A stretch of 64,000 nucleotides of DNA. Source: an uncultured Alphaproteobacteria bacterium (lineage in GTDB: Bacteria > Pseudomonadota > Alphaproteobacteria > CAAHEQ01 > UBA3637). The position numbers are program-made. The stretch spans positions 17,556-81,555 of the forward strand of contig CALXUR010000004.1 of the NCBI GenBank assembly GCA_944391735.1. Reading direction: 5' to 3'. Below, piece by piece: positions 6,001-9,000 of the stretch; position 1 is the first letter of the stretch; each line of letters opens with the position of its first letter.

Positions 6001-9000
6001 GTCCCGGCGTTATCACCCGCGTGAATCGGGAATTAACCGCTATCTTGCGCGCCAAAGGATTTAAATCCGTCCAAGAAGCCATCGGTGCCGATTTTATTTA
6101 AAATGATTTTATTGAAGACGGCCGTCCGAATGACAAAAATAGCACGATTGATAATCGGACGGCCGATAGGGGATAAGGGAAAGCAGGGAGCCCGCCCGAT
6201 AAGTCGGGCGGGAGATCGTGTTCCAGCTTTTCGGTTAAAAGTGGTAGTAAACACCGATGGAAACGTCGGTTAAATCGTCAACAGCGTCGGTGCCGCTGTT
6301 GTTTATATCCACATACCGCACCATACCGCGTAAGGACAAGTTATCCGTCAGGTGATATTGGGCACCGATACCCAGTCGCCAACCGAAATTGTTTTCGGTA
6401 TCGGAACCATATACAAAGCGGGAATAATCAGCTTTGAACCGATAGTAACCCACACCGGCGGAACCGATGAAGTCTACTTTATCGTGGACGGGCAGATATC
6501 CCAAAGCATCCAACCCGAATGCCTGAAAACTGGTTTCGGTTTTAACCAGATGGTTTAAAGCCGATTTATCCGCATGGGCGGATAGTTGATAAAAGGCTTC
6601 CGCGCCCCAATTTTGGTGAGGACGAACACCGGCGGCAATAAATCCGGCATGGTGTTGTGTTTCGGCCAAGGTATCGAAATCGCCTTTATATCCGGCGTCA
6701 GCGTAGGAATATCCCGCCCCGACATAGGGATTCAGGTCGGCGGCGTGAACCGTCGCGGCCAGTGTTGTGGTTAAAACGAAAATTGAAAATAACGAAGTTT
6801 TATTCATTTGATTATATTCCTTTATTTCTGATACAAAATCACCTTTGTCCGAATTGACAAAGGTGGTCGGGGAGTTAGTAGACTGTAGCGATACAGTTCC
6901 CGTGGCCTTTAGGGCTTGCACCCCCAGGGCTTAGCCCTAAAGCCTTGCCCAAGGGTGGTTACCTCTGAACATATACCACAGGCTCCCCGACCAATATCGG
7001 AATACTGACCAGGATAAGAAGATACATTTTTTTATTCAAAAAAAGAATACCTTCTTACGGATAGAGAGTCTGACCCCTACCCTATCGCTACGGACCTACT
7101 ACAGCCCTTTTGCACCTTTCGGCACTCAAGGATACAGGTTGCCCTCTATCCTATTCATAAGGATATATGCGGTTTATTTGAAAGTCAATATTTTTTTTAT
7201 GGAAAAGAGGAAAAAGGTATTAGGTGTTACTGGATTCCGGCACCCTTCCTTTGTCATTCCCGACCTGATCGGGAATCCAGAAGAAATAAGGCCTTATGTG
7301 TTACTGGATTCCCGTGTCAAAGCACGGGAATGACACTAAAAAAGGAGCACGGGAATGACGGAAGAGAGGAGTGCGAGGATGACGAGAGAAAAAACAGTGA
7401 ATAAAAAAGAGGGGAGAATGTCTCCCCTCCTTTTTTTAAATCCGCCGCCTTACGCCCGGATAACGTCAAATGAAACCGTTCCGTCGCCCAGCTCTTCCGT
7501 CACCGCCCCGGCCGGGACATCTTCCGACAATGCCGTGGCTAACACCTGTTCCATAATATAGGCCTTATGTTCAGCAATCGCGGCGCGAACCAGATCCGAT
7601 TCACTGGACCAAGCCAACGTAATACGATCCGAAATATCCAATCCGCTTTCTTTTCGACGGGATTGAATCATCCGCACAAAATCACGGGCGACGCCCTCTC
7701 GTTCCAAAGCCGGATCCACTTCGGTGTCCAATAAAACCACCGCCGTGTTGTCGGGCAAAGCCTGACCGTTTAAACCGTCTTTTAACACAAGGCGTAATTC
7801 AAACTCCTCGGCCGTTAAAACCTGTCCCGCAATGGACAGCGTGCCGTCGGCTTGAACCACCCAATCTGTCGTCTTTGATGCCGCCATGATGTCTTTCATG
7901 AATCGTCCCAGTCTTTTCCCGATTAAGGGTGTCTTTAAATACAAGAACGTATCCGCAACCGCGGCAATGTCTGTTTTCAGGATGATTTCCTTAACATTGA
8001 CTTCATCTTTTAATACATCGGCAAACGATTCCAATACCGTCGCCCGTTCACCGGCAACGGTCATGGAAGCCAACGGCAACCGATTGCGCAACTTATGCTC
8101 TTCGCGAATCGCTTTCGCCGTTGATGAAATCTGACGCACCAAATCCATGCGGGTAATTAAATCGGATTCCGCATTCCAAGCCGTCACATCGGGGAAATCC
8201 GTTAAATGAACGGAACCGGAACCGGTTAATCCGCGATACACGAACTCCGTCGTCATGGGCATCAATGGAGCCATAATCCGGGACAATGTCACCAAAACGG
8301 TATATAACGTGTCAAATGCCTGTGCATCCGTGCCATCCCAGAACCGGGAACGGGAACGACGAATATACCAGTTATTCAGGATTTCCAAAAACTCGGCGCA
8401 TTCGGAACACGCCCGATTCATATCATACGCCGTCAAAGCCCCGCGAACGGTTTGCGCCAACACTTTTAATTTACCCAGAATATAACGGTCTAAAATATCC
8501 GTCGACGTCGTGATTTCCCGGGCATGAATCCCTTCGGCGTTTGCATACAGGCAGAAAAAGTAATAAGCATTCCAAAACGGTAAAACCGCTTTTCGGGTTG
8601 CCTTGACAATTTCTTTTTCATTCACATAGGCCTGACCGGCTTTGACCGCCGGTGATGAAATTAAAAACCAACGTAGCGTGTCCGATCCGATATTATCCAA
8701 AACAACGTGCGGATCCGGATAGTTCTTTAATTTTTTAGATAGCTTGACCCCTGATTCGGCCATCAATAATCCGGTAGCCAAACAGTTTTTATACGCCGGC
8801 TTTCCTTGCAGTGCCGTTCCCAACACATGCAATGAATAAAACCAACCCCGGGTTTGGTCAATCCCTTCCACAATAAAATCGGCCGGGAAATGGTGTTCAA
8901 ACCACTCTTTCCGTTCAAACGGATAATGAACCTGCCCTTCCGGCATTGATCCGGATTCAAACCAGCAATCAAACACATACGGCACCCGACGCATCATTGT

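Follow-up and report, generated by a model that had tools for sequence, protein, structure and literature searches.

The locus and its structured leader

The window analysed here is a 64,000-nt stretch of DNA from an uncultured Alphaproteobacteria bacterium (assembly GCA_944391735.1, contig CALXUR010000004.1, positions 17,556 to 81,555). On its minus strand lies an intergenic structured RNA, flanked on one side by the isoleucyl-tRNA synthetase gene ileS and on the other by a gene for a 190-aa outer-membrane protein (OMP). This RNA is real, conserved and unusually elaborate, with two mutually exclusive folds that are both supported by covariation. We propose, with the chances evenly divided for and against, that the ~320-nt region is the 5' leader of the OMP mRNA, that it has its own sigma-70-type promoter and that it acts in cis as a two-state translational riboregulator. 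The genes and signals that frame it are the following:

7450..10554: ileS (Pfam tRNA-synt_1, 1e-130), with its own terminator at ~7430..7409
7160..7188, minus strand: sigma-70-like promoter from a promoter scan, with -35 TTGACT (7188..7183), a 17-nt spacer and -10 TATCCT (7165..7160)
6805..6826, minus strand: Shine-Dalgarno (SD) region and start, with AAGGAA at 6822..6817 and AUG at 6807..6805
6235..6807, minus strand: OMP gene, encoding an outer-membrane beta-barrel protein (Pfam OMP_b-brl, E = 9e-23)

Transcription from this promoter would be expected to start near 7153. Both hexamers and their spacing are kept in the related leaders L001, L006, L002 and L003, and equivalent promoters lie upstream of the smaller leaders described below. 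The translated OMP opens with a signal-peptide-like N-terminus, and an exact-sequence look-up of the protein returned no record. Between the ileS terminator and the leader promoter, the minus strand carries a block of short repeats (7230..7400) made of GTCATTCCC(G)TGC units, two palindromes of the form ATTCCCG-N-CGGGAAT and two copies of GGAATCCAGTAACAC that start at 7312 and 7238. The same block, differing in copy number, precedes the leader in L001, L006, L094 and L095, and it looks like a species-specific repeat of the repetitive extragenic palindromic type.

A first-pass annotation of the window had described about 300 nt of structured sequence upstream of the OMP gene, and folding bears this out as a strand-specific structured RNA tied to that gene. 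Across a 385-nt stretch the minus strand reaches -147.8 kcal/mol, compared with -106.5 +/- 5.8 for shuffled sequences (z = -7.1), and the plus strand reaches only z = -4.0. Many consensus pairs are G-U and therefore compatible with the OMP-gene strand only. Every helix listed in the annotation is present on the minus strand where it had been placed. From the 5' end, the elements of the leader are as follows, all on the minus strand:

7130..7151: H1, 5'-terminal hairpin with a GNRA loop, GGAUAGAGG-GCAA-CCUGUAUCC
7112..7125: H2, hairpin GUGCC-GAAA-GGUGC
7083..7107: D1, 5' half of a long-range bipartite helix, with GGG at 7107..7105, D1a (UAGUAG) at 7101..7096 and D1b (GUAGCGAUA) at 7091..7083
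7059..7086: H3, local hairpin, in the window either 7082..7074 with 7067..7059 or 7086..7080 with 7066..7060
7014..7058: H4, long AU-rich hairpin (consensus helices 4 and 5)
6993..7013: strand 'a', a pyrimidine-rich switch strand
6865..6992: three-way-junction domain, with P1 (6992..6983 with 6874..6865) and P3 (6897..6892 with 6887..6882)
6982..6899: P2 of the junction, 6982..6975 with 6906..6899 plus a variable apical part
6881..6875: J3/1 of the junction
6893..6885 and 6881..6876: D2b' and D2a', the segments that pair with D1
6833..6865: T, a terminator-like hairpin from a terminator scan, CACCUUUGUC-AAUUCG-GACAAAGGUG followed by AUUUUGU

Covarying helices and a long-range complement

Close relatives of the leader were collected from the few contigs with close OMP homologues (L001-L006 and L093-L095). 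Two more, L007 and L008, came from scanning 185,579 species genomes for a DNA pattern; both are metagenome-assembled genomes labelled "uncultured Alphaproteobacteria bacterium". These leaders share 67-84% identity. The leader and the OMP gene stay linked while the upstream neighbour varies, being ileS in the window and L094, a 284-aa open reading frame (ORF) in L001, L006 and L095, and gyrB in L008. Contigs from shared samples show both locus types (L094 with L095, and L093 with L001), so each genome probably holds two paralogous leader-OMP units. The leader is a lineage-specific addition and no universal trait of this OMP family, because the homologues L014-L017 (P0022) and most of 74 metagenome loci are without the element.

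More distant loci were reached by a profile search with an OMP alignment, contig look-ups and a metagenome scan, which yielded OMP homologues of 30-45% identity. Seven of them (L009, L019, L018, L084, L082, L083 and L089) carry smaller leaders, termed type B, whose elements follow the same order as in the window: promoter, 5' hairpins, D1, strand 'a', three-way junction, hairpin with U-tract, and SD. The type-B junction is 92.6% paired, with both-sided changes at 17 of 24 pairs, and none of 500 shuffles was as good. L022 carries a tandem pair of complete units ahead of a single OMP gene, and L023 has two complete tandem units together with a separate promoter-to-terminator array of four free-standing junctions. 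The latter (L023 900..1220) are Xcc1-like, a resemblance taken up in the last section, lie upstream of both units without a 5' domain or an anti-P1 strand, and could be trans-acting or decoy modules. In the same contig, D1 of the gene-proximal unit (~1500..1560) pairs at -20.0 kcal/mol with D2 of the upstream unit (1372..1458) and at -8.3 with its own D2, which reflects either a recombinant or chimeric contig or pairing across units.

The annotation had asked for covariation among the helices, and covariation is present. The RNAalifold consensus of eight close-family sequences (alignment A5) comprises H1, H2, H3, H4, the three-way junction with P1, P2 and P3, T, and a helix between UCCUU and the SD. 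In it, 94.2% of cells are paired, 19 pairs show both-sided changes and none of 500 shuffles was as good; when partners were slid, pairing fell to 39-52%. H1 (columns 36-44 with 51-59) has 95% of cells paired, with compensatory and one-sided changes. H2, which the annotation had singled out for G-U pairs that work on one strand, is kept in the relatives: it is 100% paired in the eight sequences, two of its five pairs have changed on both sides (AUGCC/GGCAU, GUACC/GGUGC), and its G-U pairs fit the minus strand only. H3 (columns 111-117 with 126-132) shows both-sided changes at three pairs. The AU-rich hairpin that the annotation had placed between its two domains (7058..7014, H4) shows them at five and is likewise maintained through compensatory changes. 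T is invariant in the close family and is retained in L008 through compensatory and G-U changes.

The annotation had further pictured two independently closed domains, whose helices do exist in the window but which do not amount to a conserved architecture. The helix closing domain 1 (7151..7144 with 7066..7059) has two of its eight pairs broken in 5-6 of 7 relatives with no compensation, and the consensus replaces it by the local hairpins H1 (7151..7130) and H3, the latter overlapping both D1b and the 3' arm of the replaced helix. The 10-bp inner helix of domain 2 (6942..6933 with 6916..6907) depends on a window-specific insertion and is not conserved. The helix closing domain 2 fared better: 6992..6983 with 6874..6865, here P1, is kept in the relatives and is invariant, or nearly so, within the close family.

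The best-supported feature of the leader is a 9+6-bp complement already noted in the first pass, which joins D1, situated between H2 and H3, to D2, which comprises the P3 loop and stem together with J3/1. In the window it pairs 7101..7096 with 6881..6876 and 7091..7083 with 6893..6885. Both segments differ in sequence in every relative, and their complementarity and antiparallel bipartite geometry are constant, as these examples illustrate:

Window: GUAGCGAUA with UAUCGCUAC, and UAGUAG with CUACUA
L001: GACAUUAG with CUAAUGUC, and UAGUAAG with CUUACUA
L002: AAUCUCUA with UAGAGAUU, and UUAACAAG with CUUGUUAA
L007: AAUUACACA with UGUGUAAUU, and a second pair as in L002

Cognate duplexes range from -14.6 to -25.8 kcal/mol, as opposed to non-cognate medians of -6 to -12.6. 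Summed across 17 lineages, cognate pairing comes to -317.7 and pairing of permuted partners to -160.3 +/- 13.8; 0 of 100,000 permutations matches the cognate value, with the D1 segments of three sRNA-Xcc1 loci (sRNA, small RNA) having been chosen by best duplex and so biased in their favour. The annotation had allowed for either a pseudoknot or an alternative fold, and each has its place. The P3 hairpin of the window has a 4-nt loop and D2b' reaches into its stem, so that D1:D2 and P3 are alternatives there; in relatives a pseudoknot is possible.

The leaders also appear mosaic. L002 and L007 have few scattered differences, but D1b and D2b' have been replaced together, and L094 equals the window up to 7103 and diverges beyond it. 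Several metagenome contigs (the ends of L002/L005 and of L012/L013) break at one shared base inside or just upstream of the leader. This mosaicism points to recombination or to strain-level diversification of a pairing 'code'.

An earlier suggestion was that the region is a miniature inverted-repeat transposable element with imperfect terminal inverted repeats. D1 and D2 do form an imperfect inverted repeat ~200 nt apart, and contigs ending within or just ahead of the element would be in keeping with a mobile repeat, but a count of copies gave a single one in the 64-kb window. The pattern scans found two loci among the 185,579 species genomes, one per genome, and none in JGI metagenomes or viral contigs, and the position and orientation of the element are fixed relative to one gene family. 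The arms change sequence yet stay complementary, which indicates selection at the RNA level and not sites for a transposase, and we regard the probability of a mobile repeat as close to negligible.

Exclusive folds and access to the Shine-Dalgarno sequence

Strand 'a' has more than one partner. It can form an anti-P1 hairpin with strand 'b', the 5' strand of P1, in the window pairing CCUGGUCAGUAU (7013..7002) with AUAUUGGUCGGG (6997..6986), and this a:b hairpin is predicted in 14 of the 14 leaders examined, at -5.4 to -18.7 kcal/mol. Alternatively, 7011..6993 can pair with the SD region (6826..6809), including GUAUUCC with GGAAUAU; family-wide, RNAalifold joins the UCCUU immediately ahead of P1 to the AAGGA of the SD by 5 bp. 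The a:b hairpin and P1 are mutually exclusive, and both are supported across lineages. Position b4 covaries with both of its possible partners, one in 'a' and the other, through P1, in strand 'c', and position b2 co-changes with its partner in 'a' while retaining a G-U wobble with 'c'; these co-changes make b4 direct covariation for two exclusive helices and b2 compatible with both. In L094, a G-to-A change in 'b' strengthens a:b and breaks one P1 pair.

Two folds of the window sequence embody this choice. Fold 1 (-146.3 kcal/mol) contains P1, P3 and the closing helix of the annotated domain 1, and masks the SD with 15 bp between 7011..6993 and 6826..6809. Fold 2 (-143.2 kcal/mol) contains a:b (7013..7002 with 6997..6986) and the local hairpins H1 and H3 and leaves the SD free; its long-range pairs are D1:D2 (7100..7095 with 6882..6877, and 7091..7083 with 6893..6885) and GGG:CCC (7107..7105 with 6871..6869). 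The two are ~3 kcal/mol apart and thus nearly isoenergetic. In Boltzmann samples of the leader with its start codon, structures with P1 have the SD unpaired in 0-20% of cases, mostly because it is bound to 'a', and structures with a:b in the window family have it unpaired in 46-87%.

These predictions suggest how a translational switch, which we consider plausible, might operate. In fold 1, formation of the junction through P1, P2 and P3 would free strand 'a' (7011..6993) for the SD region (6826..6809), and with the SD masked, OMP translation would be blocked. In fold 2, 'a' would instead take up the 5' strand of P1, which is rich in purines and SD-like (7013..7002 with 6997..6986), and the SD would be free. 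The 5' domain (7107..7083) would pair in two segments with 6893..6869, a stretch that runs from the P3 loop and stem through J3/1 into the first part of the P1 3' strand. The junction would serve as the sensing or binding module, whose stabilisation would shift the balance and set OMP synthesis; candidate triggers are a small ligand, a protein, temperature or a trans-acting RNA. Because two exclusive helix sets each have independent covariation, the leader is a good candidate for an orphan riboswitch or a protein-responsive switch. The annotation had left the choice among riboswitch, attenuator and sRNA, and of these we favour control of SD access. The 3' strand of P1 can also pair directly with the SD, over 6-7 bp in type B and ~3 bp in the window; this was considered and dropped as the mechanism in the window, a:SD being preferred.

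Several observations weigh against such a switch. A nested energy model, which ignores pseudoknots, puts most relatives at >99% in fold 2, so that fold 1 would need stabilisation from outside, conceivably the role of a sensor domain. P1 is invariant in the close family, and the P1 of L094 has an A-C mismatch. The a:SD pairing, at 5 bp in most relatives, says little by itself, since SD-like and anti-SD-like strands pair generically. The hairpin and U-run could terminate most transcripts, which would leave the leader largely an sRNA. Neither the Rfam model of sRNA-Xcc1 (RF02221) nor R1, a covariance model built from type-B sequences only, detects the window-type junction, R1 not even with filters off, and the link between the window and Xcc1 or type B therefore rests on synteny and shared element order. 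Finally, in relatives with 9-12-nt P3 loops, D1:D2 and the junction could coexist as a pseudoknot, in which case one static fold would suffice and no switch would be needed.

This last point leads to a rival reading, a static 5' untranslated region (UTR) in which the junction, D1:D2 and the 5' hairpin would form one compact pseudoknotted fold. Without switching, that fold would shield a strongly expressed OMP mRNA against 5'-end-dependent decay or tune translation, in a role similar to that of the ompA 5' UTR of Escherichia coli. Consistent with it, H1 begins within ~2 nt of the inferred 5' end, most relatives place D2b' in the 9-12-nt P3 loop and D2a' in single-stranded J3/1, as a pseudoknot would require, and the junction and D1:D2 helices both covary. 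Yet the a:b hairpin excludes P1 and is nonetheless conserved and covarying, the overlap of D2b' with the P3 stem makes coexistence impossible in the window, and the complete tandem units of L022 and L023 are hard to square with a stabiliser. We therefore consider a static leader unlikely. The same tandem units count in favour of the translational switch, because tandem arrangement is known for cooperative cis-regulators.

The terminator-like hairpin raises a different alternative. As the annotation had proposed, a hairpin and U-run (6865..6840) precede the ribosome-binding site of the OMP gene; they are kept in the relatives and occupy the equivalent position in all of them, type-B leaders included, so that the layout runs from promoter through fold and hairpin with U-run to ribosome-binding site. 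In the window, the hairpin and U-run (6865..6833) lie 11 nt before the SD AAGGAA (6822..6817). The region might accordingly be an independent, Xcc1-like, trans-acting sRNA of ~315 nt that ends at the 6865..6840 terminator, with the OMP gene expressed by leaky read-through. Promoter and intrinsic-terminator-like hairpin with U-run fit this, as do the four free-standing junction modules of L023 with their own promoter and terminator; there is no room for a separate OMP promoter, consistent with termination mattering, and sRNA-Xcc1, an 88-nt sRNA in Xanthomonas that has been described as trans-acting, is a discrete species on Northern blots (PMC2996969). Against an sRNA stand the constant association of the element with the OMP gene, the presence of leader strands complementary to the SD, and the short, interrupted U-run of the window (AUUUUGU). 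Moreover, the SD lies 15-25 nt past the hairpin with no promoter in between, so the OMP mRNA must include the leader. An independent sRNA is on balance improbable.

Classical transcription attenuation was considered as well. An intrinsic terminator is present (6865..6840 plus AUUUUGU), but no conserved antiterminator competing with it was found in the A5 reading or in the two window folds, and T forms in both folds and in the consensus; attenuation is thus unsupported. An 8-nt complement to the 5' arm of T (AAAGGUGG) occurs in L002 and L007 only.

Beyond the leader, the window holds a probable integrated mobile element beside tRNA-Thr (10837..18399). Behind tRNA-Thr(CGT) at 10837..10912 comes a low-GC stretch (29-36% against 47-50% in the flanks) that ends in an inverted 41-nt copy (18359..18399, 93%) of the 5' half of that tRNA gene. 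Its products include a phage-type integrase (16652..17707), a DnaB-like helicase and a replication-associated protein, along with a protein of the uracil-DNA glycosylase family, a helix-turn-helix protein and one resembling peptidyl-arginine deiminase. Further along, a 40-nt AT-rich repeat containing a promoter-like TTGAC has three copies (30781, 32635 and 40433), and a 29-nt inverted repeat (93%) joins 32502..32530 with 41077..41105. The copies lie 8-10 kb apart, a hint that gene cassettes between 30 and 41 kb are duplicated or modular.

A probable sRNA-Xcc1 link and comparison with known systems

To the first-pass annotation, the region resembled no known RNA. This holds for direct matches, as the Rfam scan it had called for gave none for the window element at the gathering threshold or at E <= 10, apart from terminator-like noise at the ileS terminator, and L008 likewise did not match RF02221. 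It does not hold for the smaller relatives, which match sRNA-Xcc1 below threshold and reciprocally. In Rfam's E-value mode, sRNA-Xcc1 is the sole meaningful match to four L023 copies, with shared topology and scores of 38.9, 37.0, 32.4 and 28.8 bits (E = 4e-5 to 0.01; gathering score 53). Conversely, R1 finds three genuine RF02221 loci, in Aeromonas, on a Nitratidesulfovibrio plasmid and in Neisseria gonorrhoeae, at the correct position (E = 8e-7 to 2e-3), loci that score 68.8-71.6 bits with Rfam. Each has an upstream segment with bipartite complementarity to the P3 loop and J3/1 that lies outside Rfam's 87-nt model, and no description of such a segment of sRNA-Xcc1 was found in the literature searched. 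In two of the genuine loci, from unrelated hosts (L097 ~1100..1135 and L098 ~1108..1143), a conserved hairpin, CGCCCGTCAG(A/C)CGT(G/A)GTTTTTTTATGCCC, followed by U7 stands between this segment and the junction and looks like an intrinsic terminator inside a larger element. In the N. gonorrhoeae locus (L096), a second, weaker junction-like match to the type-B model (1410..1475, 21.1 bits, E = 0.001) lies between the RF02221 element and a KilA-N-like ORF.

The window element itself is not placed in RF02221, because neither covariance model detects its junction. It has the three-way-junction layout of that family, with P1, P2, P3 and a single-stranded J3/1. Its P2 is ~50 nt longer and without the AAUA/GAAUA loop: where RF02221 has an A-rich internal loop (AAUA(C)AAUA ... 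GAAUA), the window family instead shows UAUGUYCA ... UUAAAG. The type-B loop is AAAAUAA ... GAAUA, and L009 and L019 read GAAUAUGUYGAAUA, of which AUAUGU is common to the window family. An orthologous downstream gene, some ten elements in identical order that include the D1:D2 geometry, and short shared motifs (AUAUGU in the P2 of L009 and L019, and UAACUyCC where J3/1 meets P1) indicate that the window junction is probably homologous to Xcc1, as a diverged relative with an expanded P2.

The c4 system of Citron and Schuster (1990) reportedly works through a1b1 and a2b2 sites. By analogy with c4 of phage P1, the junction might be an antisense module carried on the same transcript, with the P3 loop and J3/1 as specificity segments for D1 in cis or in a paralogous leader, and rapid paired replacement of D1 and D2 would then set specificity between paralogous OMP loci. 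The joint replacement of D1b and D2b' in L002 and L007, which otherwise differ little, would suit this, as would the occurrence of two paralogous leader-OMP loci in the same samples and the upstream bipartite site, resembling a1b1, that D1a/D1b form with D2a'/D2b' in 17 lineages. Genuine Xcc1 loci, too, precede KilA-N/ORF6N-type genes and have an upstream D1 (10.1101/2020.03.17.996009). No cognate-specific second target of the a2b2 kind was found at the ribosome-binding site, however: duplexes of cognate D2 with the downstream region were no better than non-cognate ones, that of the window (-4.5 kcal/mol) ranking 12 of 12. The leader elements also had no Rfam match to C4, c4-2 or isrK at E <= 5-10. 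A c4-like antisense system is hence very unlikely.

A broader reading is possible but doubtful, namely that Xcc1-type junctions in Proteobacteria are one half of a larger, undescribed two-part riboregulator. Gut Alphaproteobacteria would have taken over this device, made it bigger and in some cases doubled it in tandem, so as to switch translation of a surface beta-barrel protein. An upstream 'address' would bind the P3 loop with one piece and J3/1 with another, while P1 would be contested by a further strand; as both halves of the address pair are quickly replaced together, paralogous leaders would each come to have a specificity of their own, and the junction would sense the signal. If this is true, the Xcc1 junction acts in cis with a complementary address segment beyond the Rfam model, and there is a testable mechanism for a widespread family, found on integrons, prophages, plasmids and genomic islands, whose function has been obscure since 2010. 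The leader would also be a further large, covariation-supported regulatory element of an OMP gene in uncultured, mostly gut- or rumen-derived Alphaproteobacteria, in which, to our knowledge, almost nothing is known of gene regulation.

Among known systems, the 5' UTR of E. coli ompA is an mRNA stabiliser. It is long and structured, belongs to an abundant OMP mRNA and has a hairpin at its very 5' end. The window leader shares this general plan of a long structured OMP leader with a 5'-end hairpin; it is unlike ompA in its much larger size, its covarying exclusive helices and its pseudoknot-type pairing, and the two have no sequence relationship.

With the c4 RNA of phages P1 and P7 (RF01695), the leader shares a small structured RNA and its complementary sites on one transcript, and two short, separate recognition segments that vary between relatives while complementarity is kept; genuine Xcc1 elements moreover precede antirepressor-like (KilA-N/ORF6N) genes. 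Unlike c4, the leader has no match to the C4 models and no a2b2-like site at the ribosome-binding site. The c4-a1b1 motif is listed in PMC2864571.

sRNA-Xcc1 is found in integron cassettes, where it precedes symE (bioRxiv 10.1101/2025.06.18.660453), in APSE phages, where the gene behind it encodes an ORF6N protein (10.1101/2020.03.17.996009), and as a five-copy array in Xylella (PMC12189769). With the OMP leaders it has in common a three-way junction in which a purine-rich and SD-like strand on the 5' side of P1 pairs with one rich in C and U on the 3' side. Further shared traits are the P3 hairpin, a J3/1 rich in U, the tail aCCuuu at the 3' end, a place directly upstream of protein-coding genes, sometimes in tandem, and a P2 whose internal loop is A-rich, though not in the window family. 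The window element differs in being embedded in a ~320-nt leader that adds four hairpins, a strand competing for P1 and a terminator-like hairpin, and in its location at a chromosomal alphaproteobacterial OMP gene, whereas known Xcc1 elements accompany symE/ORF6N-type genes on integrons, prophages and plasmids.

Compared with translational riboswitches, the leader matches no aptamer class in Rfam scans, its competing strand lies 5' and not 3' of the sensor domain, and its alternative fold includes a second, long-range bipartite helix. What it has in common with them is a structured, putative sensor domain closed by P1, a competing helix that uses one strand of P1, tandem arrangement in some genomes, and exclusive helices of which one is predicted to control SD access, such that the choice of helix would decide whether the SD is exposed.

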